The notes beneath the pieces are model-generated. The model had not been told where the DNA came from. It saw only the letters and a program-made list of their open reading frames with translations, and made no database searches. A program made the translations under genes and the position numbers. This document shows positions 2,894 to 57,359 of a stretch of DNA of 64,000 nt, piece by piece. Numbering within the stretch: position 1 is the stretch's first letter; each line of letters starts with the position of its first letter. Source of the stretch: Nitrospirota bacterium (lineage in GTDB: Bacteria > Nitrospirota > JACRHL01); NCBI GenBank assembly GCA_016212085.1, contig JACRHL010000011.1, positions 64,161 to 128,160 of the forward strand, written 5' to 3'.

Positions 2894-3651
2894 GGGCCGG
2901 GCACCTCCGCATTGTCGTAAAGCCGCGCCAACGCCTTTTCCTGCACCATGTGGTCGGGGTCGTTCACCAGTTCGAACACGTGTTGCCGGGGCGCCCGGCG
3001 GGCCACCTCGTAGCGCACCCGCCAGTCCGCGTCGTCCCGGTAGGGGCCCAGGGCGTCGGCGGGAAGGCGCTGTACCGCCTCGGCGCGCACGTCGCCGTCC
3101 GCGTCCGCAGCGAGCAGCGGCAGCAGGTCCACGCCGATCCGCCCCGCCACCGCCCTGCGCACCTCCCGCTCCGGGTCGAGGATCATCGCCCTCAGGTGAT
3201 CGGGGCGGATGCGGCGGGCGACCACCAGGCGCACGTAGTAGTCCGGGTCGTGGGCCATGGCGTGCAGCCGTTCTGGCGCCAGGCGGTGGGCGACGCGGAT
3301 GCGCACCTCCCGGTCCGGGTCGTGCTGGAGGTATGCCAGGTGGCACTCCGGCAGCCGGTCGGCGGCGGCGCGGCGCACGGTACCGTCCAGGTCGTGCACC
3401 AGGGGCGGCAGGTGGAGGGGGTCCGCGAGGCGCGCGGCAATCGCCCGCACCTCGAAGAACGGGTGCCTCAGGTAGCCGGCCGCCAGGTCGCGGTTCTGGC
3501 GGAAGAAGCGGTCGATGCGCTTGGCATAGCCGTCGTGCACGCAGGCGTCGCCGGGCATACAGGTGCCCCCGCGCAGCCGGTCCTGGTGGGGGCAGTCGGC
3601 GCAGATCACCGGCTCGCCGGTCCAGGTCACGATGGGAAACCGCTCACTCAT
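2890..3651 (-). CDS. Leucine-rich-variant (LRV) Fe4S4 repeat protein
   Basis: 253 aa. The N-terminus carries a Cys cluster (CADCPH...CMPGDAC). It is followed by tandem DPDxxVR repeats (DPDREVR, DPDYYVR, DPEREVR, DADGDVR, DPDHMV) like the Azotobacter LRV protein. Confidence 0.75.
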   Translation of the reverse strand: MSERFPIVTWTGEPVICADCPHQDRLRGGTCMPGDACVHDGYAKRIDRFFRQNRDLAAGYLRHPFFEVRAIAARLADPLHLPPLVHDLDGTVRRAAADRLPECHLAYLQHDPDREVRIRVAHRLAPERLHAMAHDPDYYVRLVVARRIRPDHLRAMILDPEREVRRAVAGRIGVDLLPLLAADADGDVRAEAVQRLPADALGPYRDDADWRVRYEVARRAPRQHVFELVNDPDHMVQEKALARLYDNAEVPGP

Positions 3652-4028
3652 CCCTGTCCCCTGTTTCCACAGGTGGCGGCGGGCGGCGGCGTGAAGCCCT
3701 CCACCGCGAACGAGCTGCCGCAGCCGCAGGATCCCGCGGCGTTCGGATTGGTGAAGGTGAGTCCCGAGCTGGCCAGGGTGTCGACGAAGTCGATCACCAG
3801 GCCGTCGAGGTACGGCACGCTTTCCGGGGGCACGCACAGGGTCAGGCCGGCGGCCTGCACCACCGTGTCGCCCTGGACCGGCGTGCCCTCGACGGTGAAG
3901 TCGTAGCTCAGGCCCGCGCAGCCGCCCGGCGCCACCGCCAGCCGGAAGGCGGCGTTCGCGTCGCCGCCGCCAAAGCGGACCATGCGCCGCATGAATTTGG
4001 CGGCGCCCTCGGTGATCGTCAGTTTCAT
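3648..4028 (-). CDS. iscA: HesB/IscA-type Fe-S cluster assembly/carrier protein (nif-associated IscA)
   Basis: 126 aa, MKLTITEGAAKFMRRM..., with the C-terminal CGCGSSF motif. The ATGA overlaps the downstream LRV gene. Confidence 0.8.
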   Translation of the reverse strand: MKLTITEGAAKFMRRMVRFGGGDANAAFRLAVAPGGCAGLSYDFTVEGTPVQGDTVVQAAGLTLCVPPESVPYLDGLVIDFVDTLASSGLTFTNPNAAGSCGCGSSFAVEGFTPPPAATCGNRGQG

Positions 4029-4052
4029 GTGTTCCTCCTGGTCTGGTTTTTT

Positions 4053-5576
4053 CTATTCCGATGCCTTCGTGCCCACCAGGGCGCCGGAGCGGATCTCCGC
4101 GTCGCCGCGCGCCAGGTGCTGGATCTCGCCCGCCGCCACCCGGCTCGCGTAGTCGCGGAAGTAGGCGATCAGCCCCTTCTGGATGGACTCGTGGGCGAAC
4201 CGGTCCACCGGATCGATGCCCGCCCGGGTCAGCTCGCCCTTGGGGCATTCCCCGATGCGGGAGACGAACACGGCCGTACAGTCGCCGATGGCGCGGATCA
4301 CCGTTTCCAGGGTGTCCTCCTCGCCGTGGCCGCCCTGGCAGTACATGTCGACCCGGCGGTGGCCGACGAACTTGGCGCCGTCGCGGCTGACCTCGTAGAT
4401 CTGGAACTCGCGGGCGTGGCCGAAGTGCTCGTTGATGAGCCCCTCGCCCTTGGTGGCCACGGCGGCCAAAATGGATAGGGTGCCCGCCATCTCGGTGGTC
4501 ATCGCCTGGAGGGCGGCCAGCTCGTTTTCCTGCCCGGCGAACAGGGCGGCGCGCTGGGCCTCCACCATCTGTTGGTAGGCCTGGCGCTTCTCCAGGTCGT
4601 AGTTGACCTGCATCCGCTCGATCTTCTCCAGGGTGAACTCGTCGCTGCGGTCCTCCCCCAGCAGGCCCACGGCGTCGGCGCGGCACTGGCGGCAGTGGCG
4701 CATCATGTTCATCTCCCCCTCCTCGCACTGGTCCTGCAGGGCCTTCAGCTCCCTGGCGGTGGGGCCGCGCTGGCCGGTGAGGCCGTAGTGGGTGCCGTGC
4801 TCCGGGCTGGAGATGAGGGGCATGATGTTGTGCAAAAAGGCGCCGTTGCCCTTGACCACCCGGTTCACCTCCACTAGGTGCCGGTCGTTGACGCCGGGGA
4901 TCATGACCGAGTTGACCTTCACCAGGATGCCCCGCTCCACCAGCATCCCGAGGCCCTTCTGCTGCTGCGCGGAGAGGATGGCGGCGGCCTCCTCGCCGTG
5001 GCGGCGCTTGTTGTCCCAGAAGATCCAGGGGTAGATCTGGGCGCCCACCCTCGGGTCCACGTGGTTGATGGTGATGGTCACGTGGTCCACCCTGTAGGCG
5101 GCGATGGTGTCCACGAACTCCGGCAGGCGCAGGCCGTTGGTGGACAGGCACAGCTTGATGTCCGGCGCCTCGCGCTGGATCATCGCGAAGGTCCGGAAGG
5201 TCTTTTCCGGGTTGGCCAGGGCGTCGCCGGGGCCGGCGATGCCGAGCACGGTCATCTGCGGGATCTCGCTGGCCACCGCCAGCACCTTCCTGGATGCCTG
5301 CTCCGGGGTGAGCTTCTCGCTCACCACGCCGGGGCGGCTCTCGTTGGCGCAGTCGTACTTGCGGTTGCAGTAGTGGCACTGGATGTTGCAGGCGGGGGCC
5401 ACCGCCACGTGCATGCGGGCGTAGTGGTGGTGGGCCTCCTCGCTGTAGCACGGGTGATTTTTGACCTTCTCCCAGGTGGCGGGGTCCATGTCGGCGGGGC
5501 CCTTGGACGAGCCGCAGCTTCCCGATACCTCGCAGCCGCCGCCCTGGGGGGCGGTATTCAGCATGGGCAGTTCCAT
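4053..5576 (-). CDS. nifB: FeMo-cofactor biosynthesis radical-SAM protein NifB, with a C-terminal NifX-like domain
   Basis: 507 aa. Contains the radical SAM motif [14 protein letters not shown] and the NifB-typical [29 protein letters not shown]-terminal NifX/NafY-like domain is present. An AGGAGAA RBS precedes the start. Confidence 0.92.
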
Positions 5577-5585
5577 GTGGTTCTC

Positions 5586-5906
5586 CTATTGCTTGCCGGT
5601 GAGGGTGGCGATGCTGATCACGCCGGGCACGGGGTTCTGGAACACCTTGAACAGGCGCTCGTCGTGGGCGGTGCGCTCCAGGAAGGTGGCGTAGGCGCGC
5701 GCCAGGGCGTCGCGGTAGCGCCGGTAGCGCTCGTCGGTGGCAAGGCCCCCCGGCCCCGCGTCGATCTCGTTCTTGAGCAGGGCGAATTTTTTCAGGATGT
5801 GCAGGCGGTTCACCCGCACCACCTGGGGGTCGTAATCCAGCTCGAACAGGGCGAAGAAATCCTCCGCGTCGATGGCGTGGTCCAGTTTGTCCAGCGTGGC
5901 GTTCAT
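5586..5906 (-). CDS. nifW: NifW-like nitrogenase-stabilising protein (tentative)
   Basis: 106 aa with no Cys. The motif ...FFALFELDYDPQVVRVNRLHILKKF... resembles the NifW family core. It sits between nifN and nifB where nifX is usually found. Confidence 0.55.
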   Translation of the reverse strand: MNATLDKLDHAIDAEDFFALFELDYDPQVVRVNRLHILKKFALLKNEIDAGPGGLATDERYRRYRDALARAYATFLERTAHDERLFKVFQNPVPGVISIATLTGKQ

Positions 5907-5923
5907 CGGTTCGGTCCTTTCCG

Positions 5924-7252
5924 TTAGGAGTCATCCCCCGGCACACTTCCCGGAACCGGTTCCGGGCGGTGCGCGAGCAGGAGGTTGGCGGCGTCGAAGA
6001 TGAGGCGGGTGGCGCCCCGGTACCCCACGTTGAGCTGGTGGGCGGCGCCCAGCCGGTCGAAGTTGGGAATCCCCATCCGCATGAGCGGGATATCCAGCCG
6101 TTGCGCGGCCTGGCGGCCGTGGGAGTGGGTCACCAGCAGGTCGCACCCCCGTGCGGCGGCCTCCAGGTCCTCCAGGTCGCCGACGATCACCGTGTCCGCT
6201 GGGAGGGTTTCCAGGTTGGGCGCGGTGGCGGGGGCGACCGCGCAGGCCACGGTGGCGCCCATGCCCGTGAACAGGTCGGCCAGCGCCGCCAGCAGGTCGG
6301 CCTCGGCGCCGATGGCGATCCTGCGGCCGGCAAAATGGAAGTGGCCGTCCAGCATGGCGTCCTCCAGGCGGCTGCGCTGGCGGCGGACCTTGAGGGGCAC
6401 GTCCTCCATGCTGATCTCGTGCAGGAGCGCCACCAGGCGGTCCACCTCCTCCAGGCCCGAGAGGTGGTCGAACACCGTGTACGGCACGCCGTTGCGCTGG
6501 CACAGCACGTCCGCCGCGGGCTGCATGCTGCGCCCCACGGCGATGGTGTGCTCCGCGCTTCCCATGGCGCGGATGCGGGCCAGGGGGGTACCGCCCAGGG
6601 TGGTGGGCGAGAAGGTGTCCGGCACGTGGCCGTCCAGGGAGCCGGACAGGTCGGGCAGGATGGTGGGCACCAGGCCGAACGCCTCGATCAGCTCCCGGAT
6701 CTCCTCCACGTCTGCGGGGGTGAGGGAGGCGCCCGCCAGCACGTTCACGCGGCCCGACAGGAGGGCGGATTCCCCCTCCGCCAGCTCGCGCACCAGGGCG
6801 GTCACGGCCTTGCCGAAACCGTCCTGGAGCGAGCCGGAAAAATCGGGGGTGGCCACGGGCACGATGGCCACGTGGTTCATCTCCGGGTGCTTCCCGCGGA
6901 ACAGGCGGATCACCCCCTCGATGTCCTCGCCCTTGGTTTCCGTGAGGCCCGTGGTGGCCAGGCCGATGATCCGGGGGCGGGCCTTCTCGTAAATGGTCAG
7001 CAACGCCTGCTCGATGCTTTCCTCGCCGCCCAGGATGGTGGTCACCTCGTTCATGGCGGTGGTCTGCATGGGGATGCTCTCGCGGAAGTGGCGCACGAAC
7101 AGCACCAGCCCGAACGACGTGCAGCCCTGCGAGCCGTGCAGCACCGGCAGGCACTGGTCGAGCCCCAGGAACGCCAGGGCCGCGCCGATGGGCTGGCTCA
7201 TCTTGAGCGGGTTGACGGTGCAGGCCTTGCGGGGTTTGGTGATGAGGGTCAT
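5924..7252 (-). CDS. nifN: Nitrogenase MoFe cofactor biosynthesis protein NifN
   Basis: 442 aa with the N-terminus KACTVNPLKMSQPIGAALAFLGLDQCLPVLHGSQGC typical of NifN. It immediately follows nifE. Confidence 0.9.
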   Translation of the reverse strand: MTLITKPRKACTVNPLKMSQPIGAALAFLGLDQCLPVLHGSQGCTSFGLVLFVRHFRESIPMQTTAMNEVTTILGGEESIEQALLTIYEKARPRIIGLATTGLTETKGEDIEGVIRLFRGKHPEMNHVAIVPVATPDFSGSLQDGFGKAVTALVRELAEGESALLSGRVNVLAGASLTPADVEEIRELIEAFGLVPTILPDLSGSLDGHVPDTFSPTTLGGTPLARIRAMGSAEHTIAVGRSMQPAADVLCQRNGVPYTVFDHLSGLEEVDRLVALLHEISMEDVPLKVRRQRSRLEDAMLDGHFHFAGRRIAIGAEADLLAALADLFTGMGATVACAVAPATAPNLETLPADTVIVGDLEDLEAAARGCDLLVTHSHGRQAAQRLDIPLMRMGIPNFDRLGAAHQLNVGYRGATRLIFDAANLLLAHRPEPVPGSVPGDDS

Positions 7253-7261
7253 GGCGCCCCC

Positions 7262-8665
7262 CTATGCCGTCACGGTGGGCGCCGCGGCCGGTGCCACATG
7301 CCAGGGCGCGGGCTTCCTGAGGCGCGCCCAGACGGGGTTGTGGATGGCCTTGTCGATCCGGTCCACCAGGTTCACCATGCCGTCGTACCCCGCATAGGCG
7401 TGGTGGCGCTCCTGGTTGATGTCGAGGAACGGCACCTTGGCCTTCAGGGCCACGAACTGGGAGCGGCCGCCGGCCATGAGGATGTCGGCCTTGGCCTCGG
7501 CGAGCATGGCGTACATCTCGCGCGGGGTGATGGACTCGATCATGTGGGCGTCCTGCCCCATCAGCTCGACGATGCGGTGCTTGTCCTCCTGGGTGCTCTT
7601 CTTGACGCTGGTGCCCACCACCTCCATGCCCACCTCCTGGAGGGCGGACACCACGGACCAGCTCTTCACGCCGCCGGTGATGAGCAGCACGCGCTTGCCC
7701 GCCAGGCGCTCGCGGTAGGGCAGCAGGCGCTCCCAGGCGACGGCCTCCTGCTCGGCGATCAGGGCTTCCGTGCGGTCGAGCAATGCGGCGTGGGCACCCT
7801 GGCGGACCAGCAGCCCGGCGATCTGGCGCAGGGCGTCCGACATGTCGGAGATGCCGTAGAAGGAGCCCTCGAAGAACGGGATGCCGTAGCGCTCCTCCAT
7901 CTTGCGGGCGATGTTGATCATCGCCTTGGAGCACACCATCATGCTGGCCCTGGCCCGGTGCGACCAGGCCACCTCGCGGTAGCGCGCGTCGCCGGAGATG
8001 CAGGCGAGCAGGCGGATGCCCAGCCGGTCGAGGAGCGGCGTCACCTGCCACAGCTCGCCGGAGAGGTTGTACTCGCCGATGATGTTGATGTCGTGATCGG
8101 TGAGGTAGTCCGGCTCCTGGGTGCCGATCACGTGGTCCAGCAAGGCCTCCGCCGCCAGCTTGTTGCCCAGGTTCTTGCCCCCCACGAAGCCGGGGGCGTT
8201 GACCGGGATGACCGGCTTGCCGAACTGCTCCCTGGCGGCCTTGCACACCGCCTCCACGTCGTCGCCGGTGAGGGCGGGCACGCAGGTCTGGTAGACGAAC
8301 ACGGCGGGCGGGTCGTACTTGTCGAGGATCTCCCGGATCGCCCGGAACAGGCGTTTCTCGCCCCCCATGATGACGTCCTGCTCGTCCAGGTCGGTGGTGA
8401 AGCCGGTGCGGTAGAGCAGGGGGCCGGACGATGCGGCGCCGCGGTTGTCCCACGAGTTGCCCTCGCAGGCGATGGGGCCGTGCACCAGGTGGGCGGCGTC
8501 GACGATCGGCTGGAGGGCGATCTTGGCGCCGTCGAACGCGCAGCCGCCGGCCGCCGCGCCGGGCTGGGCGGACTTGGTGCAGCCCTTCTTGCGGTCCTTG
8601 TCCGACTTGTTCCGGTTGTGCTCGCAACCCGGTTCGTCGAGGACCTCGGCGACCTTCGTGATCAT
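7262..8665 (-). CDS. nifE: Nitrogenase MoFe cofactor biosynthesis protein NifE
   Basis: 467 aa from [20 protein letters not shown]...GCAFDGA...HGPIAC, a NifE/NifD-like fold. It lies upstream of nifN. Confidence 0.9.
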
Positions 8666-8812
8666 GTGTGCCTTGCCCCAAATAAAAAAGGAGGCCGAAC
8701 GCGCACATCGATGGGTGCGCATCCGGCCTCCAGTCGTCTGGTCAGCCTGTTGTTGCGTTCCGTGGAGACCGGTGCCCCCGGCGGGTCGCGCCGTCTCCTT
8801 GCCCGGAAGCTA

Positions 8813-9144: not shown

Positions 9145-10173
9145 ATGCATGATCTTCACGCCCAGCTGTTCGAATACCGGGTCAACGCACTGCGCGAGAT
9201 CCGGCCCGCCTTGCGGAGCCTGGCGCGGGAGCTCACCGAGGCCACCCCGCAACAGATGGACGGGGTTCTTTGCGACCACCTGCGGGATCTGCCGTCCTGC
9301 GAGCTGCTCTACGTGCTGGACCGGGAGGGGCGGCAGGTCTCGTCGAACGTGCGCCGCCGGGCCTTTGGCTTCGGTATCGCCCTGGACCGGGGCGAGAAGA
9401 ACGTCTCCAGGGCCCACTGCCACTATTACAGGGACGCGGTGACCGCCCTGGAGTGCGTGATCACCGAGCCGTACCGCAGCAAGGCCACCGGCCACCCGGT
9501 GGTGACCGTCACCTATCCGGTGTCGGACGCGGCGGGCAGGCTGGTCATGGTGATCGCGGCGGACATCCGCGCGCGGGACCTGCTCTACCTGGTCACCTGC
9601 GGCAGCCGCCCGGCGGCGTTCCTCAAGCTCGGCCGGGGCATGTACCTGACCATCGCCCTGTTTCTGGGCGTCATCAGCACCGCCCTGCTGGGGCACGCGC
9701 TGGTGGAGTTGTGGGGGCTGGTCACCCACCTGGGGCGCGAGTTCGATCCGGACCGGCTGTTCCAGGCCACCATCATGGCCACCCTGTCCCTGGCGGTGTT
9801 CGACCTGGGGCGGACGGTGTTCGAGGAAGAGGTGCTGTTCATCCGTGACCCGCACAAGCCGGCGGCCATCCGCAAGGCGCTGTCGCGGTTCATGGGCTCC
9901 ATCATCATCGCCCTGGCCATCGAGGCGCTCCTGCTGGTGTTCAAGAGCACCATCAAGGACCCGTCCCTGTTCCCCAACGCGGTGGCGCTGATCGCGGCGG
10001 TCGGCTTCCTGCTGCTCACCCTGGGGGCCTACGTCTACCTGGGCAGCAGGGCCGAGGCGGCGGCTCCGGCGCGGCCCGGCCGGGAACACGAGCCGCCCGC
10101 CGGCGGGCCGCGCGGGACGGGCGACTCCGCCGGGTCGGCCACCGCCTTTGCCGGCAAGCGCCTCGGCCCCTGA
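9145..10173 (+). CDS. Membrane protein with an N-terminal cytoplasmic Cache/PAS-like sensor domain and a C-terminal 4-TM module; no output domain
   Basis: 342 aa. The Cache-like signature is EPYRSKATGHPVVTVTYPVSDAAGRLVMVIAADIRARDL. Four hydrophobic helices follow, containing AVFDLGRTVFEEEVLFIRD...RKALSRF...IALAIEALLLVF, and then a Pro/Gly/Ala-rich tail. Confidence 0.7.
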   Translation: MHDLHAQLFEYRVNALREIRPALRSLARELTEATPQQMDGVLCDHLRDLPSCELLYVLDREGRQVSSNVRRRAFGFGIALDRGEKNVSRAHCHYYRDAVTALECVITEPYRSKATGHPVVTVTYPVSDAAGRLVMVIAADIRARDLLYLVTCGSRPAAFLKLGRGMYLTIALFLGVISTALLGHALVELWGLVTHLGREFDPDRLFQATIMATLSLAVFDLGRTVFEEEVLFIRDPHKPAAIRKALSRFMGSIIIALAIEALLLVFKSTIKDPSLFPNAVALIAAVGFLLLTLGAYVYLGSRAEAAAPARPGREHEPPAGGPRGTGDSAGSATAFAGKRLGP

Positions 10174-10186
10174 CCGGGGCCGTCGC

Positions 10187-11851
10187 TCACGCCGGATAGG
10201 CCGGTGTGGTGCGCAGCCGCGTGTCCGGCACCGGGCCGCCCACGGTAAAATGGTACACGCTTTGCCAGGCGGTGCCGGTGATGCCGAACAGTTCGTGGAC
10301 CGGATCGTCCAGGTAACAGCCGATGCCCGTTCCCGCCAGCCCCCACGCCTCGGCCTCCAGGTACAGCAATTGGCCGATGGCACCGGCCTCCCAGAACAGG
10401 CGGCGGTAGGCCCAGGCGCCGTCCCGCTGGAGGGTGGACGCGAACTCCGCCAGCATGCCCAGGCTGAAGGCGCCCTGGGCGGCGATGTCCTGGTGGCAGC
10501 TCAGCGCCCGCGCGGCGCCGGTGGCGTTGCCCGCCATCAGGAGGCTCAGGTCCAGCCCGTCGGGGCAGCCCGGGGGGCGCTCCCAGGCGAATTCCGGGTG
10601 GCTCAATCCGGCGCGGAGCGCGGCCCCTCGCGCCGGGTCGCGGCACAGCACGTAAAGTCCGGGGGCGATGCCCACGACCCGGTGCACGAACAGCAGCAGG
10701 TGGATCGCCGGGGGCCACGCCATCGCCGCCAGGGCGGGCCCGCCATGCACCAGCCGCCCGAGGGTGGCAAACAAGGCGGCCGCGGGCATGGGGGTGACGC
10801 CATCCATGTCCACCGCGCTGCGCCGCCGCCGGACCAGGCGGCGCAGGGAGGGGGCCTCGCGCCGGGGGGACGCGGGCGCCGCCCACGGCGGCTCCGGCGC
10901 GGGCGCCAACCCGTTCCGAACCGGGGTGGCGGGCTTGACGGTGGCCTCGGCCACCCGGTCCATGTCGTCCCAGGGGACGTGGACCGGGCTCAGGGCGTTG
11001 GCCGTGCCGCGCCAGGGGCCGGCGGCCACGGCGCCGATGCCGTCCGCCCGCAACGATCCGGACGCGGGCGGCCCGCCGTCCGGGAACAGGCAGACGATCA
11101 CGTCCGGGTGCTCCGGTTCCGTCTCCCCATGGGCCGGCCCCGGCGGCCAGGGGAGCCCCAGCAGGGCCGCCACTTGCTCGTCTCCCAGATCGTCCAGTAT
11201 CCGCGCGCTCCAGCCGAGCCCGGCGGCGGCCACGGCCACGGCGGCGATGGCGTGGCCCACGTCGTGCTGGCAGTAGCGGAAGGCGCGCATGCCGTACTTC
11301 CAGGCCTCGCGCCAGTGGATGGACGCAAGGCCGACCAGCACCGCGTTCGGCTCCAGGTCTCCCGCCAGGGCCGCCCAGGTGGCGGCGTCGAGGCGGCGGC
11401 GCACCTCCAGGGCGTGGGGCTCCGGGGCGTAGTGGGCCACCATGCCGCCCGCGCACAGCCCCGCCACCGGGCCGCACACCAGATACCCTTCCGTGGGGTG
11501 CAGGTTGCCGCTGGACGGGTTCACCCGCAGGGCCCAGCGGCTGGGGCCCGCCTCCTTCCAGGCGGAAAGGGCCAGGCTGTCGTAGAACAGCCGGCCGATG
11601 GCGCGGCCGTCCAGCGCCGCCGGGGCAACGGGCGGCCCGGCAAACACCCGGTCGTAGGCCGGATCGGTGCCCACCGCAAGGGGCGCGTCGACGGGACAGC
11701 GCATCAGGGGCAGCAGCTCGGCCCCCGCATAGCGGCGGAAGGGATCGGGCCGGGAGGCCCAGTCCAGCCCCCGGGGGCCCGGCGCATAGCCGTCGAACCG
11801 GTGCTTGCTGGCGGCGTGATAGGCCATCACGGTATCGAGCGGGTCGGCCAT
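10187..11851 (-). CDS. SagB/ThcOx-type dehydrogenase (tandem nitroreductase-fold protein)
   Basis: 554 aa. The N-terminus MADPLDTVMAYHAASKHRF...LDWASRPDPFRRY is a SagB-type start. A second nitroreductase-like half follows (..HPEFAWERPPG..CYLDDPVHELFGI). No YcaO gene or precursor-peptide ORF lies nearby. Confidence 0.7.
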   Translation of the reverse strand: MADPLDTVMAYHAASKHRFDGYAPGPRGLDWASRPDPFRRYAGAELLPLMRCPVDAPLAVGTDPAYDRVFAGPPVAPAALDGRAIGRLFYDSLALSAWKEAGPSRWALRVNPSSGNLHPTEGYLVCGPVAGLCAGGMVAHYAPEPHALEVRRRLDAATWAALAGDLEPNAVLVGLASIHWREAWKYGMRAFRYCQHDVGHAIAAVAVAAAGLGWSARILDDLGDEQVAALLGLPWPPGPAHGETEPEHPDVIVCLFPDGGPPASGSLRADGIGAVAAGPWRGTANALSPVHVPWDDMDRVAEATVKPATPVRNGLAPAPEPPWAAPASPRREAPSLRRLVRRRRSAVDMDGVTPMPAAALFATLGRLVHGGPALAAMAWPPAIHLLLFVHRVVGIAPGLYVLCRDPARGAALRAGLSHPEFAWERPPGCPDGLDLSLLMAGNATGAARALSCHQDIAAQGAFSLGMLAEFASTLQRDGAWAYRRLFWEAGAIGQLLYLEAEAWGLAGTGIGCYLDDPVHELFGITGTAWQSVYHFTVGGPVPDTRLRTTPAYPA

Positions 11852-11891
11852 GGGGGCAGTGTACGCCCGCGTCCCCGCCCCGGACACCGCT

Positions 11892-12035
11892 GGGCACCTC
11901 TAATAACCTGCTGCGCGCCGCGATTGCTGCGTTGGGCGGTGCTCGAACCCTCTCCTATCACCATGATATGTCTCGGGTTCTGCGCTCCGTCCGCCTTGCA
12001 CTCACGCCGCTCGCGACGCTTATTAGAGGTGCCCC
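11892..12035. repeat. 144-bp MITE/REP-like intergenic element with 15-bp perfect terminal inverted repeats; contains copy A of a 3-copy motif
   Basis: GGGCACCTCTAATAA at 11892-11906 pairs with TTATTAGAGGTGCCC at 12021-12035. The right end carries CCTTGCACTCACGCCGCTCGCGACGCTTATTAGAGG, which recurs at about 17736 and, reverse-complemented, at about 60507. Confidence 0.6.
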
Positions 12036-15153: not shown

Positions 15154-15465
15154 ATGGCATATGTGGTCACCGAGAACTGTCGGGGTTGCCGCTACACCGA
15201 CTGCGTAACGGTCTGCCCGGTGGAGTGCTTCTGGGGCGACGGGGAGATGCTGTACATCGACCCGGAAACCTGCATCGATTGCGGCGCCTGCATCCCCGAG
15301 TGCCCGGTGGAGGCCATCTTTGCGGACGACGAAGTGCCCGCCGGCCAGGAGGAATGGATCGGGATCAACGCCGAGCGCTGTGCCAGCGGGGAGCTGGTGA
15401 ACGTCACCGCGAAGGCGGCCGCCCTCGCCGGTGCCGACGCGCGCAAGGCCGCCCTCGGTTTCTAG
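15154..15465 (+). CDS. fdxA: 7Fe ([3Fe-4S][4Fe-4S]) ferredoxin, Azotobacter FdxA type
   Basis: 103 aa, [27 protein letters not shown]...[17 protein letters not shown], the FdxA cysteine pattern. Confidence 0.85.
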
Positions 15466-15492
15466 GCTGAGGGTCGCCCCCGCGCCCCGGCG

Positions 15493-15975
15493 TCATAACG
15501 ACGGGCGTTCGGCCTCGGGAATGGTCAACGCCAGTTCGAGCCGCTTGATCTCGTCCAGGTGGCCCTGCTCCAGGCGCGACAGATCCTCGAAAAAGGCCCG
15601 CATGGACGGATCGTCCGTTTCCGTGGCCAGGTCGCGGTAACTGTCGCGGGCCTCGGCCTCGCGCCGCCGGGCGAGCTTCAGGATCTCCTTGCTGTCGCCC
15701 TTGCGCACCGTCTTCTCGTCCTCCGGAGAGATCACGCCGGAGACCCGCTCTTCCAGTTTCTCCACGTAGGCGAACGCGTCGAAATCCAGGTTGAGCGGTG
15801 GTTCCGACACGCGGCGGGCCAGATCCCGCGCGTGGTCCACCTCCAGGTCGGCCAGTTCCATGAACAGGACGCGGGAGTCGTCCCGGTCGGTCAGTGTCGT
15901 GGCCAGGCGGTAAAAGGCGCGCGACTTGACCTCGCTCAACAGCGCCCGCTTGACGGTTTTGATGGATGTTGCCAT
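15493..15975 (-). CDS. Ferritin-like diiron-carboxylate protein (rubrerythrin/bacterioferritin-like four-helix bundle)
   Basis: 160 aa with two ExxH motifs (LEVDHARDL and LEQGHLDE), each preceded by a Glu-containing helix. About 65% identical to the C-terminal half of the ORF at 16486-17439. Confidence 0.65.
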   Translation of the reverse strand: MATSIKTVKRALLSEVKSRAFYRLATTLTDRDDSRVLFMELADLEVDHARDLARRVSEPPLNLDFDAFAYVEKLEERVSGVISPEDEKTVRKGDSKEILKLARRREAEARDSYRDLATETDDPSMRAFFEDLSRLEQGHLDEIKRLELALTIPEAERPSL

Positions 15976-16001
15976 GGTGCCCTCCTGTTGCCGGGGTGCC
16001 G

Positions 16002-16027
16002 CCCGGCGCGCACGAGGCCGCGCCGGG
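16002..16027. other. Perfect 9-bp stem-loop between the Rieske and ferritin-like genes (CCCGGCGCG-N8-CGCGCCGGG)
   Basis: Read directly from the sequence. There is no downstream T-run, so this may be an mRNA processing or attenuation structure rather than an intrinsic terminator. Confidence 0.4.
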
Positions 16028-16041
16028 AGCCGGCGGCCGGC

Positions 16042-16350
16042 TTACACCTCGATTTCAATTTCCTCCCCGGTGACGCGGACGTTGTAGCGCGTCACGTCCT
16101 CCCCCGCCGGCGGCATGGTGACCTCCCCGGAGGCGATGGTGAAATGGGCGCCGTGCCAGGGACACACCACCTCGTCCCCCTGGATGAGCCCCTCGGACAG
16201 CGGCCCCCCCATGTGGGTGCAGGCGTCGTCGATGGCGAAGAACGTGCCACCCAGGTTGAACAGCGCGATGCGCCTGGCCCCCACCCGCACGCATTTCGCG
16301 CCCTGGTCGGGTATTTCCATCTTCTTGGCGATGGCGATGAATTGCGACAT
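16042..16350 (-). CDS. Small Rieske [2Fe-2S] ferredoxin-like protein
   Basis: 103 aa from MSQFIAIAKKMEIP. The Rieske ligands are CTHMGGPLSEG and CPWHGAHF. A GGAGG RBS lies before the ATG. Confidence 0.8.
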   Translation of the reverse strand: MSQFIAIAKKMEIPDQGAKCVRVGARRIALFNLGGTFFAIDDACTHMGGPLSEGLIQGDEVVCPWHGAHFTIASGEVTMPPAGEDVTRYNVRVTGEEIEIEV

Positions 16351-16485
16351 GGCGATAGCCTCCTTGCGCCATGGCAGCCGCGCCCTCCCGTCGGGATGCC
16401 GTCCTGATTTGACTATATGCCCCCCACCGGCGCTGCGCCAGGAAGGGGGGGGCACATGGGCGGGCAACCGCCCCCGGCCGCGCCG

Positions 16486-17439
16486 TCACGCGGCCGGGGG
16501 CGCCGCGTCGGCCGTCCCGAGGTGTGCTTCCAGCCGCCGGAGCCCTTCGAGATGGGCCTGTTCGGTGCGGGAGAGCTCCTCGCAGAACGCCCGCATCAGC
16601 GGATCGTCCGCCTCCTGCGCCAGCTCCCGGTAATTGTCCCGCGCCTCCGCCTCGCGGCGCTTGGCCAGCTTCAACACGGCCCTGGGGTCCCCCTCGCGCA
16701 CGGTTTTTTCGTCCTGCGGCGCCAGGGTGCCGGAGATCTGTTTCTCCCACTTGCTCACGTAAGCGAACGGGTCGAAATCCAGGTTGAGCGGCGGCCTGGA
16801 GGCGCGCTCGGCGAGTTCGCGTGCGTGGCCCACCTCCAGCGCGGCCAGGTCCAGGAACAGGGCGCGGGAGTCGTCCCGGTTCGTCAGATCGGCGGCCAGG
16901 CGGTAGAAGGCCCGCGACTTGATTTCGCTCAGCAGTGCGCTCTTGATGGTTTTGGCGGGGGTGAGCGCGGAGGTCTCGGTGCTGTTCTCGGCGTGGGCGC
17001 TGAGCCGCTGGAAGGCGCCCAGGCACACCACGCCCAGGCTGGCGACGGCGAGCAGCAGCGTGGGGTAGATGATCTGCGCCATCTCCTGCGTGGCCGCGCT
17101 GAAGATGAACACCAGCGCCTCCAGGTAGGCGGCGATGGTCACGATCACCAGGAACTTGGTGAGGGTCTTGCGGGCCTCGGCGGAGGAGCGCAGTTCCCGG
17201 TTGCGCAAGACCTCCTCCTCGATCAGGTATTTGCTCACGTCGAACACCGCCACGGCGACGACGATGAGGCCGATGGCGTCCAGCATCCGGGGCACCGCCT
17301 CGGTGCTGGAGTGGAACGCCAGCCACACGTCCCAGCCGCCGGCGCCGATCATGGCAAGGCTGATCAGCAGCAGCGAGGTGCTCGCCGTGATGTACATGAT
17401 GTGGGTGACGAGGGTGTGTAGGCGGTTCTGGTTCCTCAT
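16486..17439 (-). CDS. Membrane-anchored ferritin-like diiron protein: an N-terminal 4-TM module fused to a ferritin-like domain
   Basis: 317 aa from MRNQNRLHTLVTHIMYITAST. The TM module (AVFDVSKYLIEEEVLRNRE...RKTLTKF...IAAYLEALVFIF) is homologous to the C-terminal module of the 9145-10173 protein. The C-terminal about 160 aa is a paralog of the ORF at 15493-15975. Confidence 0.65.
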   Translation of the reverse strand: MRNQNRLHTLVTHIMYITASTSLLLISLAMIGAGGWDVWLAFHSSTEAVPRMLDAIGLIVVAVAVFDVSKYLIEEEVLRNRELRSSAEARKTLTKFLVIVTIAAYLEALVFIFSAATQEMAQIIYPTLLLAVASLGVVCLGAFQRLSAHAENSTETSALTPAKTIKSALLSEIKSRAFYRLAADLTNRDDSRALFLDLAALEVGHARELAERASRPPLNLDFDPFAYVSKWEKQISGTLAPQDEKTVREGDPRAVLKLAKRREAEARDNYRELAQEADDPLMRAFCEELSRTEQAHLEGLRRLEAHLGTADAAPPAA

Positions 17440-17735
17440 CGCTCGATGTTTGTTGGGGGTGGGGGCATTCCGGCCGTCTCGCCAATCATGGCACCTGGCG
17501 GCCGCCTGCGAAAGGGCGGGGTAATACTCCCGTTGCAACCGCGGCGGGTGGCGCCCCGGTGTCGCGAAAACCCGGCCGATGTCATAATGAAAACATCGGG
17601 TTGGCTTCGCATCCGGAGAGGCAAAACGATTCCAGCCAACCCCCTGGAGGGTCGTCCGCCCCGGCCACCCCCGCTTCCAGCGGGCGGTTCGGAATGGACG
17701 GATTCCGCGCGGCGTAACGGTGCCGCTCCGCTCGG

Positions 17736-21257: not shown

Positions 21258-22796
21258 ATGCCTTTCTTGCGCCCGTCCGCCGCCCTGTCCCTCATCGCAG
21301 CTTGCCTGCTGCTGTTCATTGGCGGCACCTCCCACGCCCACACATTGCACGTCACCGACGACGCGTCGTCGGATCGGTCGGCGCATTCAAGACTGTCCGG
21401 CGACGGTGGCGACATGGTGTTGCGCGCCGCCGCCGTGCCTGATCGCGACGGGGAGGACCGCGACCGCCGTGGCCGGGACCATGGGGACGATGACGACCAC
21501 GACACCGCTGGCGCCGCGTTGGCGCTGGCCCGCTTTGACCTGTCGACGCTGGCCGCCGGCGCCGATATCGAGAAGGCCACGCTGCGCCTGTGGGTAACCC
21601 GGGTTGCCCACCCCGGCACCGTGCACGTGCGGCTGATGCTGGACGGGTGGTCGGAACGCGACCGCTACCTGCGGGCGGAAATGGACCCGGTGCCGGTGCG
21701 GTCGTTCGCCGTTTACGCGGATGACGGCGGGCGCACCCTGACCGTCGATATCACCGACGCCGTGCGTCTCTGGCGCGCGGGCGTCCTTCCCAACCACGGC
21801 CTGGCGCTGACCACGGATGATGCCAGCCTGTGGCTGGCCAGCAAGGAAAACACCGCCACCTCCCACGCCGCCGAGGTGGAGGTGGCGCTGGCGCCAACGC
21901 GGGCACTGGCGGATTCCGGCGGCTCACCCGGCTCCACCGGGCCGCAAGGCCCCACCGGTCCGCAAGGCCCGGCGGGCGTGCCGGGTGACCCCGGCCCCGC
22001 CGGCCCGCAAGGCCCCACCGGTCCGCAAGGCCTGGCGGGCGCGCCGGGTGACCCCGGTCCCGCCGGCCCGCAAGGCCTCACCGGTCCGCAAGGCCTGGCG
22101 GGCGCGCCGGGTGACCCCGGCACCGCCGGTCCGCAAGGTCCCGCCGGTCCGCAAGGCTTGGCGGGCGTGCAGGGCGACCCCGGCCCCGCCGGCCCGCAAG
22201 GCCCCGCCGGTCCGCAAGGCCTCACCGGTCCGCAAGGCCCGGCGGGCGCGCCGGGGGCGACAGGCCCGGTTGGGCCACAGGGGCTCACGGGGCCGCAGGG
22301 CCCTCCCGGCCCCGGCGGGTTGTCCGGCGTGGTGATCGGCCCGCACCTGGTCAGCGTCACGACGCCGGACGCGGTCACCCTGGACGTTGCCGGGATGCCG
22401 GGCGTGGCGTTCGGGGCCGCCTACCTGGCGAGCCCGTACATCCTCACCACCACGTGGCGCGACCCGCTCACCCTGGCCATGGACGTGCCGGCGGACGGGG
22501 TGATTCTGATCCAGTACACCCTGACCTGCGAGCTGGTGTCGGCGGGCGCGCCGGCCGCGCTGGCGAGCGGGTTTGTCAGCAACCTGCCGGTGCAGCTCAT
22601 CCCATCGGCGGACCCGGGCACGTTCCATTGCACCACCGGACCGTCGCCGCAGACGGACGTCATGCGCCAGAAGCTGTTCCCGGTGCAGAAGGGGGTGAAC
22701 AACTTCTACCTGCGCGCCGCCATGCAGACACCCACCGGCCTGGGCATGTTGCGCAACATCACCATGTCGGGCATGTATTTCCCGGCCACCTACTGA
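21258..22796 (+). CDS. Secreted collagen-like protein: signal peptide, an N-terminal beta-rich domain that may be DNRLRE/CBM96-like, about 45 Gly-X-Y triplets, and a C-terminal globular domain
   Basis: 512 aa. [29 protein letters not shown] looks like a signal peptide. [16 protein letters not shown] resembles a DNRLRE-like pattern. A long uninterrupted [19 protein letters not shown]... run follows. The roughly 150-aa C-terminal domain ends ...YFPATY. Confidence 0.75.
21918..22330 (+). repeat. Tandem 63-bp (21-codon) repeats encoding the collagen-like region (about 4.5 near-identical units, with 9-bp sub-periodicity)
   Basis: The unit ggccccaccggtccgcaaggcc(c/t)ggcgggcg(t/c)gccgggtgaccccgg(c/t)cccgccggcccgcaa recurs with only a few substitutions. 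Confidence 0.8.
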
Positions 22797-22816
22797 CCGG
22801 GCCGGGCTACCCCGCA

Positions 22817-22850
22817 AGGGGCCGGGTGGCAACGCCCGGCCCTTTTTTTG
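22817..22850 (+). terminator. Rho-independent terminator after the collagen-like gene
   Basis: GGGGCCGGG-tggcaacg-CCCGGCCC followed by TTTTTTT. Confidence 0.75.
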
Positions 22851-22957
22851 GTGCCCCCGGACGGCGACCCTGGGCGGCCGCGCCCGACCTGATCGCGCCG
22901 GAGCGGGGCGGCCGACCGTTTGGGTCCACGCCCCCAAAGCCGTTACAATCGGCCCCC

Positions 22958-24109
22958 ATGCTCACCGTCCTCCACCGTGTCCCCGTTTGGCTGCCGCAGA
23001 CCGAGACCTGGAACCACACCCAGATCTCGAACCTGCCGCCGGAGCGCGTTTCCTGCCACGTGGTGTGTGACACCACCGCCAACCTCGACCAGTTCCCCAT
23101 CGCCAACCTGCACTGCCTGACGGACGACTCCGCCGCCGCCCGCCTGCTGCGCCGGGTCGCCCGCAAGACGCCGCTCTACCCCTGGCTGCGCAACCGCTAT
23201 GGCGCGGCGGTGGCGCGGGCGGCGGGGGCGCGGGTGCTGCATTCCCACTTCGGCTTCTACGGCTGGCAGGACCTGCCCCTGGCCCGGGCGGCGGGCCTGG
23301 GGCACGTGGTCACCTTCTACGGGGTGGACGTGAACAAGTTCCCGCGCCAGTACCCCGTGTGGCGCCGGCGCTACCGGGAGCTGTTCGCCCGCGTGGACCG
23401 GGTGCTGTGCGAGGGGCGCCACATGGCGGACGCCCTGGTGGCCCTGGGCTGCCCGGCAGGCAAGGCGCGCGTGCAGCACCTGGGGGTGCGGCTGGACCGG
23501 GTTCCCTATGCGCCGCTGGCGTGGCGGCCCGGCGAGCCGCTCAAGGTGCTGATCGCCGCCTCGTTCACGGAAAAGAAGGGCATCCCCCACGCCATCCGCG
23601 CCCTGGGCCGCATCCGCAACGACGTGCCGCTGGCGGTCACCCTCATCGGCGACGCCGCCGACAACCCGGACAGCCGCGCCGAAAAGCGGATCATCCTGCG
23701 CGCCATCGCCGAGGCGGGGATCGCGCCGCGCCTGCTCGGCTTCCAGCCGCACCGGGTGATGCTGGAGGAGGGGCGCCGCCACCACGTCTTCCTGTCCCCC
23801 AGCATCGAGGCGAAAAGCGGCGACACGGAGGGGGGCGCGCCCGTGTCCCTCATCGAGATGGCCGCCACCGGCATGATGATCGTGAGCACCCGCCACTGCG
23901 ACATACCGGACGTGGTGCGGGACGGGGAGACCGGCCTCCTGGCGGACGAGGGCGACGTGGACGGGCTGACGGCCCACCTGCGCGCCCTGATCGCCCACCC
24001 GGAGCGGTGGGAGGCCATGCGCCGCGCCGGCCGCGCCCACATGGAGGCGGACTACGACGCCGCCGTGCAGGGGGAGCGCCTTGCCGCCATCTATGCGGAG
24101 CTGGCGTAG
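22958..24109 (+). CDS. Glycosyltransferase family 4 (GT-B, RfaG-like)
   Basis: 383 aa from MLTVLHRVPVW with the C-terminal GT4 motif ...EGGAPVSLIEMAATGMMIVSTRHCDIPDVV..GETG. Confidence 0.75.
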   Translation: MLTVLHRVPVWLPQTETWNHTQISNLPPERVSCHVVCDTTANLDQFPIANLHCLTDDSAAARLLRRVARKTPLYPWLRNRYGAAVARAAGARVLHSHFGFYGWQDLPLARAAGLGHVVTFYGVDVNKFPRQYPVWRRRYRELFARVDRVLCEGRHMADALVALGCPAGKARVQHLGVRLDRVPYAPLAWRPGEPLKVLIAASFTEKKGIPHAIRALGRIRNDVPLAVTLIGDAADNPDSRAEKRIILRAIAEAGIAPRLLGFQPHRVMLEEGRRHHVFLSPSIEAKSGDTEGGAPVSLIEMAATGMMIVSTRHCDIPDVVRDGETGLLADEGDVDGLTAHLRALIAHPERWEAMRRAGRAHMEADYDAAVQGERLAAIYAELA

Positions 24110-52258: not shown

Positions 52259-52287
52259 TTGACCAGGGGTTTCCACCCATTTAAAAT
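52259..52287 (+). promoter_or_regulatory. sigma70-type promoter for ccsA-ccsB(-icd)
   Basis: TTGACC-N17-TAAAAT lies about 120 nt upstream of the ccsA GTG. An AAGGAGAG RBS sits at the start. Confidence 0.5.
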
Positions 52288-52406
52288 TGTGGGTCCAAGG
52301 AATTTCGGTGCACCACTGCGCGTGCCGTCGGAGACGTGCGAACCGGCGCGCTGGGCGGACGGGCGGGGTGCGGACAACACCGCTGCATCTGGGTAAGGAG
52401 AGAAGT

Positions 52407-53714
52407 GTGAATCTCTACGAGCACGAGGCCGTCGCCACAATCTACAGGAAGTATGGGATCTCCCATCCCCGGTTCGTGGTGGCCACCGAGCCCAACGAGG
52501 AAGTGGCCGCCTTCGTGCGCGAGAATGGCGGTGCCGTGGTCAAGGCCATGGTGCTGGTGGGCAAGCGCGGCAAGGCCGGCGCCGTGAAGCTGGTCAAGAC
52601 CGAGGCCGAGGCCGCCAAGGCCGTCACCGACATCATGAACATGCTGGTGTGGGGCGAGAAGCCGGTGGCGGTGATGGTCTGCGAGAAGGCCGACATCCAG
52701 GCCGAGATGTACTGCGCCGTGACCTACTCCACCGAGACCCGCAGCCCGGTGATCACCCTCTCCATGGACGGCGGCATGGACGTGGAGGCGATCGACCCCT
52801 CCCGCATCATCAATTTCCCGGTGGACGCCAGGCCCGAGGTGGAGCCCTACCAGATCCGCGACATGCTGGTGGCGATCGGCTTCACCCGGAAGTATGGCGA
52901 GATCCTGCGCCAGGCCTCGCTCACCATCGCGAGCGTGTACAAGGCCTTCTGGGGTTCCGAGGCGCGCCTGCTCGAGATCAACCCCCTGGCGGTGGTGAAG
53001 GTCGCCAGGAAGGACAGGAAGACCGGTGAGATGGTCGAGACCCTCGAGCTGCGCGCCCTGGACGCGGTGGTCACCCTGGACGACGACGCCACCGTGGCCC
53101 CGCAGAAGATCTACGGCGAGCGCTCCGCCTACACCCGCGAGTCGACCCGGCGCGAGGTGGACGCCCTGCTCATCGACCGCGACGACCACCGCGGCAAGGC
53201 CGGCTCCTACGTGGAGCCCGAGGACATGAGCGGCGACATCGCCATGATGACCTTTGGCGGCGGCGGCTCCGCCGTGACCATCGAAACCTGCTACGACGCC
53301 GGCCTGCGCCCCGCCAACTTCACCGACATCGGCGGCAACCCGCCGGCGGAGAAGATGTACAAGATCTCCCGCATCATCCTCTCCAAGCCGGGCATCAAGG
53401 GGGTGCTGGTGTGTGGCGGCACCGCCTCCAACACCCGCATCGACGTGACCCTGGGCGAGGGCCTGGTGAACGCCATCGACGACCTGGCCAGGGAGGGCAA
53501 GCTCGACCGCGACCTGATCTGGGTGGTGCGCCGCGGCGGCCCCGAGGTGGAGAAGGGCCTGCGCCTGCTGGCCGAGTGCTTCCAGCGCAACGGCATCAAG
53601 GGCCGCATCTTCGATTCGGAGCTGCCCATCACCCAGGCGCCGCTGATCCTGCGCGACCTGCTGGTGGAGCACCGCGGCTATGTGTGTGGCGACACGGCCC
53701 AGGCCAGCGTCTGA
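52407..53714 (+). CDS. ccsA: Citryl-CoA synthetase large subunit (SucC/AclB-like ATP-grasp subunit), GTG start
   Basis: 435 aa, VNLYEHEAVATIYRKYGISHP...VVKAMVLVGKRGKAGAVKLV, with the succinyl-CoA synthetase beta fold. The adjacent SucD-like gene and a separate citryl-CoA lyase gene support the call. Confidence 0.65.
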   Translation: MNLYEHEAVATIYRKYGISHPRFVVATEPNEEVAAFVRENGGAVVKAMVLVGKRGKAGAVKLVKTEAEAAKAVTDIMNMLVWGEKPVAVMVCEKADIQAEMYCAVTYSTETRSPVITLSMDGGMDVEAIDPSRIINFPVDARPEVEPYQIRDMLVAIGFTRKYGEILRQASLTIASVYKAFWGSEARLLEINPLAVVKVARKDRKTGEMVETLELRALDAVVTLDDDATVAPQKIYGERSAYTRESTRREVDALLIDRDDHRGKAGSYVEPEDMSGDIAMMTFGGGGSAVTIETCYDAGLRPANFTDIGGNPPAEKMYKISRIILSKPGIKGVLVCGGTASNTRIDVTLGEGLVNAIDDLAREGKLDRDLIWVVRRGGPEVEKGLRLLAECFQRNGIKGRIFDSELPITQAPLILRDLLVEHRGYVCGDTAQASV

Positions 53715-53766
53715 CCCGGCAACGATTTCAACGACTGCTAGATATAGCGGACCGGAAGGAGAGCAA

Positions 53767-54732: not shown

Positions 54733-54796
54733 GCGGATTCGACGGACAGGGGGCGGGGCCGGCATGGCGCCGGGCCCCGTCCGGAGCACGCGTTGA

Positions 54797-57103
<2,307 letters not shown>

Positions 57104-57109
57104 CAGGAT

Positions 57110-57141
57110 GTTGAAAAAGTCCATACGTGGCCTTTTTCAAC
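57110..57141 (+). other. AT-rich perfect 10-bp hairpin immediately after the icd stop
   Basis: GTTGAAAAAG-N12-CTTTTTCAAC. Confidence 0.4.
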
Positions 57142-57326: not shown

Positions 57327-57359
57327 AAAAAGGGGTGGCCAGCGGGCCGCCCCTTTTTG
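57327..57359 (+). terminator. Rho-independent terminator between icd and ccl
   Basis: GGGGTGGCC-agcg-GGCCGCCCC followed by TTTTT. Confidence 0.7.

Follow-up and report, generated by a model that had tools for sequence, protein, structure and literature searches.

A tandem SagB-like flavoprotein from a Nitrospirota bacterium belongs to a large, conserved family found apart from RiPP genes

Results

We analyzed a 64,000-nucleotide stretch of contig JACRHL010000011.1 (positions 64,161 to 128,160 of the forward strand; assembly GCA_016212085.1) from a Nitrospirota bacterium, below referred to as the window. The gene in question, located at 10187..11851 on the minus strand, had been described in a first-pass annotation as an orphan SagB-type dehydrogenase situated between a sensor gene and the korAB genes. 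The gene is real; its product, a flavin enzyme built of two halves, is kin to the oxidases of thiazole/oxazole-modified microcin (TOMM) pathways and an ordinary member of a large, strongly conserved, uncharacterised family. We read this protein, with a probability of roughly 0.6, as a stand-alone dehydrogenase of the SagB/McbC clade that depends on flavin mononucleotide (FMN), acts outside the synthesis of peptides made on ribosomes and then post-translationally modified (RiPPs), and arose by fusion of a homodimer into a pseudo-dimer. On this reading, its substrate is something other than a RiPP encoded nearby. The tandem family as a whole is an ancient, slowly evolving genomic loner, untied to YcaO, nif, or kor.

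Gene and domain content

The longest reading frame at this place starts from a GTG codon (10187..11887, minus strand), and an ATG at 11851 gives a protein of 554 amino acids, with the stop codon at 10187-10189. The same ATG is the exact start of the homologues, which share the pattern M.D.L..V.AYH in the alignment. The GC content of the three codon positions (0.76/0.58/0.92) matches that of real genes in this window of 71% GC. The only Pfam family found in the protein is PF00881 (nitroreductase; 49.6 bits, in two stretches), and the NCBIfam model of the SagB domain, TIGR03605, scores 89.3 bits against a curated cut-off of 78.4, likewise in two stretches, the best of them at residues 85-235. 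The score with TIGR04511 (SagB_rel_DH_2, putative peptide maturation dehydrogenase) is below the cut-off (61.1 bits versus 240), and no nitroreductase subfamily model of NCBIfam matched. A 100% identical database protein, from a Nitrospirae metagenome-assembled genome (MAG), is named 'SagB/ThcOx family dehydrogenase'. The reading frame, the GC pattern, and the TIGR03605 score thus bear out the earlier call of a 554-residue tandem protein of the SagB type. Comparison of TIGR03605 with other nitroreductase profiles, which that annotation had proposed, places the protein in the SagB clade, in an uncharacterised subfamily; membership in a well-characterised non-SagB subfamily was looked for and was not found.

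Fold and parts of the protein

The AlphaFold model of the protein has a predicted template modeling (TM) score of 0.89, with low per-residue confidence (pLDDT) in the invariant loop 98-117, as expected since the model is cofactor-free. Its best full-length match in the PDB, found by Foldseek, is 3EO7 (E 1.4e-21; TM score 0.64 by query and 0.72 by target; 577 columns). The profile alignment to the same protein has an E-value of 3e-38, and both halves are aligned by hidden Markov model (HMM). Single halves match the oxidase (Ox) domains of ThcOx, BmdC, and McbC in Foldseek, with E-values of 3e-6 to 1e-5 for ThcOx and BmdC. The two nitroreductase-like halves noted before are therefore confirmed both by the paired PF00881 and TIGR03605 matches and by the structural match to 3EO7.

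The chain, encoded throughout on the minus strand, begins with an N-terminal extension (residues 1-79; 11615..11851) that carries, by alignment, the segment YH-x-x-x-KH ... LDW-x-x-QP-x-PFRRY. The YH...LDW...QP.PF part of this segment aligns to residues 11-45 of 3EO7. The conservation of single residues was scored throughout in 142 representatives that share 38-57% identity with the window protein; H12 of the extension reaches at least 97% in this set. No RiPP recognition element (RRE) was matched in the protein, and the extension is of a different kind. Half 1 (residues 80-256; 11084..11614) has the nitroreductase/SagB fold, aligns to half 1 of 3EO7, includes the best TIGR03605 stretch, and has lost the Arg-Arg-Ser (RRS) motif. 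It contains the N111-P-S-S-G-N116 loop (11504..11521) and W184-K185-Y186-G187 (11291..11302), the Lys-Tyr catalytic-base motif of azoline dehydrogenases, which occurs in half 1 only. A variable linker (residues 257-330; 10862..11083), gapped in the alignment and with pLDDT below 50 at 313-324, connects it to half 2 (residues 331-554; 10190..10861). The latter keeps the FMN-binding motifs and has lost PSxG and Lys-Tyr; its best PF00881 stretch covers residues 452-538. It aligns to half 2 of 3EO7 and, by sequence profile, to the Ox domain of BmdC, including RRS and the glycine contacting N5 of the flavin. Its motifs are R343-R344-S345 (10817..10825), S451-C452-H453-Q454 (10490..10501), and G509-I510-G511-C512 (10316..10327).

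Conserved residues and predicted active site

The FMN site of this clade has been described in two enzymes. In BmdC, Arg145/Arg146/Ser147 bind the FMN phosphate, Asn236 contacts N3/O4 of the flavin, Gly294 contacts N5, the partner protomer gives backbone contacts to FMN via 182-186 'ASAGG', and the general base is proposed to be Tyr260 (PMC8795117). In McbC, each FMN site is built from both subunits, Lys201 activates Tyr202, and Tyr202 takes the C-alpha proton, with transfer of the hydride to FMN N5 (PMC6395948). Mapped onto BmdC through a profile-PDB alignment, R343-R344-S345 align to the phosphate-binding Arg145/Arg146/Ser147, the N111-N116 loop appears as the counterpart of 'ASAGG', C452-H453-Q454 align to I235-N236-Q237, G511-C512 align to G294-H295, and K185-Y186-G187 fall at the Lys-Tyr pair. 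The cysteines C452 and C512 are specific to the family, being missing from both BmdC and 3EO7, where a glycine occupies the C512 position.

Among the 142 representatives, 48 positions are at least 97% conserved. K185, Y186, G187, R343, R344, S345, and Q454 are present in all 142 sequences, C452 and G511 in 141, and C512 in 138; P112, S113, S114, and G115 are each conserved at 97% or more. Of the other cysteines, C194 reaches 88% conservation and C429 shows none. In a set of 26 sequences at about 53% identity, approximately 130 columns are invariant. The motifs are distributed unevenly between the halves. Half 1 has no conserved RRS, and half 2 has an unconserved R476-D477 pair followed by G478 at the place equivalent to Lys-Tyr, the PSxG loop being gone as well. 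Such complementary loss would be expected if just one of the two ancestral interface sites still functions, and we infer from it a single composite FMN site per chain.

In such a site half 2 would hold the FMN: its RRS would bind the phosphate and G511 would contact N5, with the Q454 region also taking part. From half 1 would come the PSSGN loop and the Lys-Tyr base, which the partner subunit usually supplies. If the protein acts as McbC and BmdC do, Lys185 would activate Tyr186, which would abstract a proton from the substrate while the hydride passes to FMN N5. Such a reaction would remove two electrons by alpha,beta-dehydrogenation, or run the other way, and C452 and C512, lying beside flavin-contact positions, may add thiol chemistry. 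The gene, its fold and family, the distribution of the motifs, and the lack of a conserved context are shown by the analysis; the single FMN per chain, the roles of Lys-Tyr and of the cysteines, the reaction direction, and the kind of substrate are predictions.

Several points weigh against this reading. A profile-profile comparison of half 1 with half 2 detected no similarity (E = 0.68), so that the proposed origin of the halves by duplication derives from the fold and the HMM matches only. Arg149 of BmdC, which contacts FMN N1/O2, is not conserved in the family protein (V347). The placement of Tyr186, C452, and C512 near the predicted flavin site comes from alignment, and neither structural paper (PMC8795117, PMC6395948) states which protomer's tyrosine faces which FMN. 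Many of the hosts are strict anaerobes (Methanosarcina, Syntrophobacteraceae), hence an O2-dependent oxidase cycle cannot be general in the family. Finally, in the literature on tandem or orphan SagB-like proteins, TIGR03605, and 3EO7, no functional study of any member was found.

Comparison with characterized proteins

In its predicted mode of action the protein most resembles an FMN dehydrogenase of the azoline/azole type, and the curated HMM places it in the SagB-domain superfamily. With SagB, BcerB, and McbC, the latter from the microcin B17 synthetase B-C-D complex, it shares the fold, RRS, the PSxG loop, and Lys-Tyr (Lys201/Tyr202 in McbC). All their FMN-site residues are present but split, with R343/R344/S345 and G511 in half 2 and P112-N116 in half 1. 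SagB, BcerB, and McbC are single-domain homodimers with two FMN sites, whereas the window protein is a fused tandem of 554 residues for which one site is predicted. They form complexes with YcaO cyclodehydratases and act on leader-bearing precursors, neither of which was found near our gene. The conservation of the tandem family is far higher than theirs, and its phylogenetic spread is broader.

The Ox domains of ThcOx, a cyanobactin oxidase (5LQ4, 8PZ5), and BmdC, the oxidase of the bacillamide nonribosomal peptide synthetase (NRPS; 7LY4-7), match each half of the protein. These enzymes carry an RRE or RRE-like domain at the N terminus, and their substrates are thiazolines bound to a peptide or to a peptidyl carrier protein, whereas the tandem protein has another N-terminal extension. 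It also differs from BmdC by the absence of an Arg149 equivalent and by the two cysteines beside flavin-contact positions. In indigoidine synthetase IndC, an embedded pseudo-dimeric Ox domain has two halves in one chain and does not need dimerisation (PMC8795117). That domain resides inside an NRPS adenylation domain and uses a carrier-bound substrate, whereas our protein is free-standing, with no NRPS nearby. NfsA/NfsB, Frp, and NOX share the PF00881 superfamily and have FMN at the dimer interface. They are homodimers of about 200-240 residues without Lys-Tyr, and their structural matches are weak (E > 0.05).

Among solved proteins, the full-length tandem architecture is shared by 3EO7 alone (Ava_2154 of Anabaena variabilis), an unpublished 'putative nitroreductase' of the JCSG. 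It shares the N-terminal YH..TK...LDW..QP.PF segment. At 18% identity, with Arg-Tyr or Gln-Tyr in place of Lys-Tyr and without C452 and C512, it belongs to a different orthologous group. Its function is not reported in the literature, where its published use is only as a molecular-replacement model.

Size and distribution of the family

A word-indexed search with the window protein gave at least 8000 matches. The best 120 of these are all full-length (98-100% coverage; 533-604 amino acids; 50-60% identity), and the named members among them are SagB-type dehydrogenases. An exhaustive HMM search of 1.84 billion cluster representatives retrieved 9271 of them at E<=1e-3; the stricter limits of 1e-10 and 1e-30 were passed by 4309 and 1400, respectively. 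By a scan with one genome per species, at least 595 genomes carry the gene, in 15 or more phyla including Archaea. The carriers are Nitrospirota, Nitrospinota, Acidobacteriota, Planctomycetota, Verrucomicrobiota, Latescibacterota, Hydrogenedentota, and Omnitrophota, as well as Chloroflexota, Myxococcota, Desulfobacterota, Gamma- and Betaproteobacteria, Photobacterium, and Methanosarcina.

Fusions to other domains are rare. Among the 150 best representatives, three proteins of about 1030 residues (P0130, P0133, P0135) combine the whole tandem protein with a divergent aldo/keto-reductase-like domain, and in a protein of 824 residues (P0220) it is joined to ankyrin repeats and a rhodanese whose GlpE-type CYHGNAS loop is intact. 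These fusions are the only physical links of the tandem family to other functions.

Absence of RiPP partners

Neither YcaO nor TfuA was found by Pfam scans of all long open reading frames (ORFs) and unassigned gaps of the 64 kb, and no plausible precursor peptide was seen in the same DNA. A search of the window with the Escherichia coli YcaO (phmmer, blastp) gave no match either, a single query that reaches divergent TOMM YcaOs poorly. To place the gene in context, we used 80 homologue loci from species genomes, 80 from metagenomes serving as an independent replication, and 12 with precomputed Pfam labels; loci whose family proteins were at least 65% identical were collapsed, resulting in 55 lineages. 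No YcaO, TfuA, or any RiPP gene was observed at about 170 homologue loci of these lineages, including the 12 with full Pfam labels. The orphan status noted for the window gene thus extends to all of the family, which makes a role unrelated to RiPPs, as the first-pass annotation had hinted, the best reading.

Gene neighborhood across homologues

The most recurrent neighbor family within 3.5 kb, an ECF sigma factor, occurs in 6 of the 55 lineages (11%), followed by response regulators, ABC ATPases, GGDEF proteins, and TolB, all of them abundant multi-copy families. Tight recurring neighbors are confined to close relatives. In Nitrospira, for instance, they encode TPR and VanZ proteins, an M15 peptidase, and a 284-residue protein of unknown function, and in Methanosarcina they encode DJ-1/PfpI, CNNM, and DUF92 proteins. 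The genes next to the closest relatives of the window protein (57-60% identity) code for PEMT and methyltransferases, or for SelO.

It had been proposed that the position between a nif-linked sensor gene and korAB hints at a redox role, to be checked by the conservation of the neighborhood in related genomes. The check did not support this inference from position. A nif gene occurs in no homologue locus of either set, and kor is found near one of about 85 homologues (L016) and at none of the 80 replication loci; the closest relatives have other neighbors, and no family exceeds 11% of the lineages. A linkage to kor or nif was rejected on the same counts, about one match being expected by chance. 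The single kor locus, L016 3799-11608, from a Latescibacterota chromosome, has the order fdxA-korA-korB followed by the tandem gene, as in the window, with a DDE transposase between korA and korB and a pyruvate dehydrogenase E1 gene just downstream of the tandem gene. The placement of the window gene beside nif and korAB looks incidental.

The spacer between korB and the tandem gene is 208 bp long, as had been reported, and the gap on the other side, to the convergent ORF 9145-10173, is 13 bp rather than 14. The spacers had also been described as lacking small ORFs; the larger one contains a single 33-residue GTG ORF, which has no cysteine and does not resemble a TOMM precursor. The label 'sensor' for ORF 9145-10173 is backed only by sub-threshold Cache matches (24.9 bits versus a cut-off of 45). 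On sequence and fold energy, the 208-bp spacer contains an imperfect hairpin of 143 nt (11892..12034, minus strand; -75.7 kcal/mol, z = -4.94), whose ends pair through an AT-rich inverted repeat of 15 bp without mismatch, 12034-12020/11906-11892 (GGGCACCTCTAATAA / TTATTAGAGGTGCCC). Beyond these two sites the motif of this repeat is absent from the window, where 0.01 occurrences would be expected. No Rfam family, sigma-70 promoter, or intrinsic terminator was matched in the spacer. The hairpin may insulate or couple korAB and the tandem gene; among its possible identities are a stabiliser or attenuator between cistrons, an element similar to repetitive extragenic palindromes (REP) or miniature inverted-repeat transposable elements (MITE), and a pair of operator sites.

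Sulfur and iron-sulfur leads

When the 48 window genes were ranked by their recurrence near homologues, the small Rieske gene came first (7 loci) and fdxA second (3 loci). In a Luteitalea MAG (L081, 11659-16298), the stop codon of the tandem gene overlaps the start of a gene for an IscA-rhodanese fusion, followed by CDGSH, ErpA, Rieske, an IS630-type transposase, FdxA, and DUF59/SufT-like and YggX-like genes, that is, an iron-sulfur (Fe-S) biogenesis and repair neighborhood broken by a mobile element. At another locus (L022) the order is Mrp, Nfu, a bacilliredoxin-like gene, and the tandem gene. Genes adjacent to some homologues encode Thioredox_DsbH (twice), DsbB, and a rhodanese. The Fe-S and small ferredoxin theme (Rieske, FdxA, ErpA, Nfu, Mrp, SufT, YggX, CyaY; loci L081, L022, and L145) was rejected as a general association after a distance-decay control, in which the loci that were the source of the queries were excluded and the counts were normalised by the DNA available at each distance. 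The Fe-S/sulfur gene set yielded 0.78, 0.65, 1.04, and 0.92 matches per 100 kb at 0-2.5, 2.5-5, 5-7.5, and 7.5-10 kb, respectively (binomial p = 0.81).

Two further associations are retained as leads only. Four lineages have the protein AMPylase gene SelO near the tandem gene, separated from it by 19 bp, 173 bp, 1.2 kb, or 6 kb; the loci are L088 (3840-5321, 19 bp upstream), L027, L156, and L001 (2431-3936). These are more cases than one would anticipate for a single-copy gene. A pterin-4a-carbinolamine dehydratase gene lies upstream in three lineages, at 35 bp (L109), 253 bp, and 2.4 kb (loci L109, L140, L158, and L073), and in L140 and L158 it is adjoined by a sulfite/nitrite-reductase-like gene and a small Rieske gene. 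Both links are post hoc and within the multiple-testing expectation, as a few such coincidences are expected given that thousands of gene families were implicitly tested.

Discussion

Alternative functions

The protein could be an azoline dehydrogenase acting in trans, oxidising thiazolines or oxazolines made by a YcaO encoded elsewhere in a split TOMM/RiPP pathway. It passes TIGR03605, its Lys-Tyr motif is invariant, its nearest characterised structures are ThcOx, BmdC, and McbC, and the DNA inspected is a 64-kb portion of a contig of at least 154 kb. We consider this quite improbable, given the absence of YcaO from both the window and about 170 homologue loci, the lack of an RRE (PF00881 being the sole Pfam match), and the TIGR04511 score of 61 bits against a cut-off of 240. 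Moreover, the family keeps about 50% identity over 15 or more phyla as well as Archaea, and 48 of its positions hardly vary, which is unlike the fast-evolving, patchily distributed tailoring enzymes of RiPP pathways. A role as redox partner of korAB/ferredoxin or of the nif genes, for instance by electron exchange with FdxA or Rieske carriers in a 2-oxoacid:ferredoxin or nitrogenase-maturation network, is improbable too. The tandem gene lies on the korAB strand, 208 bp downstream, the Latescibacterota locus repeats the fdxA-korA-korB order, and the small Rieske and fdxA genes recur most near homologues. These observations are opposed by the chance-level count of kor and nif in the two locus sets, the absence of both from the surroundings of the closest relatives, the lack of enrichment of small Fe-S and carrier genes near the gene (p = 0.81), and the 143-nt hairpin that separates it from korB. 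We give least credence to a detoxification enzyme with no specific partner, a nitroreductase or flavin reductase of the generic NAD(P)H-dependent kind. PF00881 membership, the fusions to an aldo/keto-reductase-like (NADPH-type) domain, and the missing conserved context, typical of detoxification enzymes, would agree with it. Structures of the NfsA/NfsB type, however, match weakly (Foldseek E > 0.05) compared with those of the SagB clade (E<=1e-4), no NCBIfam nitroreductase subfamily model matched, and the invariant Lys-Tyr, together with the very high conservation, argues for one specific reaction.

A function in sulfur metabolism is harder to dismiss, if still doubtful: a thiol/sulfur (persulfide) or Fe-S-homeostasis flavoenzyme would use its flavin-adjacent cysteines together with rhodanese-type carriers or thiol-disulfide oxidoreductases. 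It agrees with C452 and C512, at least 97% conserved and flanking flavin-contact positions, with the fusion to ankyrin repeats and a rhodanese with an intact CYHGNAS loop, with the Luteitalea overlap and the Fe-S genes after it, with the Mrp-Nfu-bacilliredoxin-like order, with the adjacent Thioredox_DsbH, DsbB, and rhodanese genes, and with SelO in four lineages. All these leads are post hoc and come from a minority of lineages, the Fe-S/sulfur set showed no proximity enrichment in the distance-decay control, three or four matches of a single-copy gene are expected by chance for a few of thousands of families, and the predicted cysteine-flavin geometry rests on alignment. Within the favored reading of a stand-alone, non-RiPP FMN dehydrogenase, a rather unlikely but more novel variant would be a distinct, ancient housekeeping flavoenzyme that re-uses the azoline-oxidase site (Lys-Tyr and FMN) with an added cysteine pair on a cellular, non-RiPP substrate. 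Such a substrate could be a thiol, a persulfide, or protein-bound, and tied to sulfur/Fe-S redox homeostasis, an idea prompted by the fusion to rhodanese and ankyrin repeats and, in a few lineages, by operon-like clusters in which the neighbors are IscA-rhodanese, Nfu, Mrp, and bacilliredoxin-like genes.

Other genes of the window

On the minus strand, positions 3702-8722 contain an IscA-like gene (3702-4025), nifB, nifW, nifN, and nifE, after which comes the Cache-like ORF on the plus strand. In the order of transcription, the minus strand then has korA, korB, the 208-bp spacer, and the tandem gene, whose end converges on the Cache-like ORF. Beyond kor there are fdxA, rubrerythrin, the small Rieske gene, a rubrerythrin fusion, and fumarase, and then lipid-A and envelope genes. 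A redox/oxidative-stress cluster occupies 15154-17538, with fdxA (plus strand), a rubrerythrin-like gene (15493-15975), the small Rieske gene, whose true coding sequence is 16045-16350, and a gene for a 350-residue protein with a C-terminal rubrerythrin domain (16486-17538). Rieske homologues (34-61% identity) are found within 10 kb of tandem-family genes at seven other loci, with no proximity enrichment. A set of the reductive tricarboxylic acid (rTCA) type at 52287-60505 comprises citryl-CoA synthetase-like subunits, a monomeric isocitrate dehydrogenase, a citryl-CoA-lyase-like gene, and aconitase. The block of nif cofactor-assembly genes, the rTCA-type set, and korAB, fdxA, and fumarase suggest a diazotrophic rTCA autotroph.

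Two gene calls of the window deserve comment. The longest ORF at 2950-3906 (plus strand; 318 amino acids) has no Pfam match, and the real gene in 2950-4025 is probably the minus-strand IscA/HesB-like gene 3702-4025, directly downstream of nifB, which was matched by tblastn with ErpA as the query. The ORF at 21258-22796 (plus strand) has Pfam matches to the collagen triple-helix repeat (E 4.5e-20) and shares positions with the gene called after it (22454-24109); in DNA this rich in GC, the frame may be spurious and merely Gly-X-Y-like.

Implications

The window gene says nothing on the function of nif or korAB. SagB-type annotations are routinely taken as markers of thiazole/oxazole RiPP clusters, and a large share of the 'SagB/ThcOx family dehydrogenase' annotations are stand-alone enzymes without RiPP context. 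Genome-mining tools should leave members of the tandem family out of RiPP counts. The tandem family is among the more strongly conserved enzyme families of unknown function, and the predicted single FMN site and the cysteines near it provide testable hypotheses.

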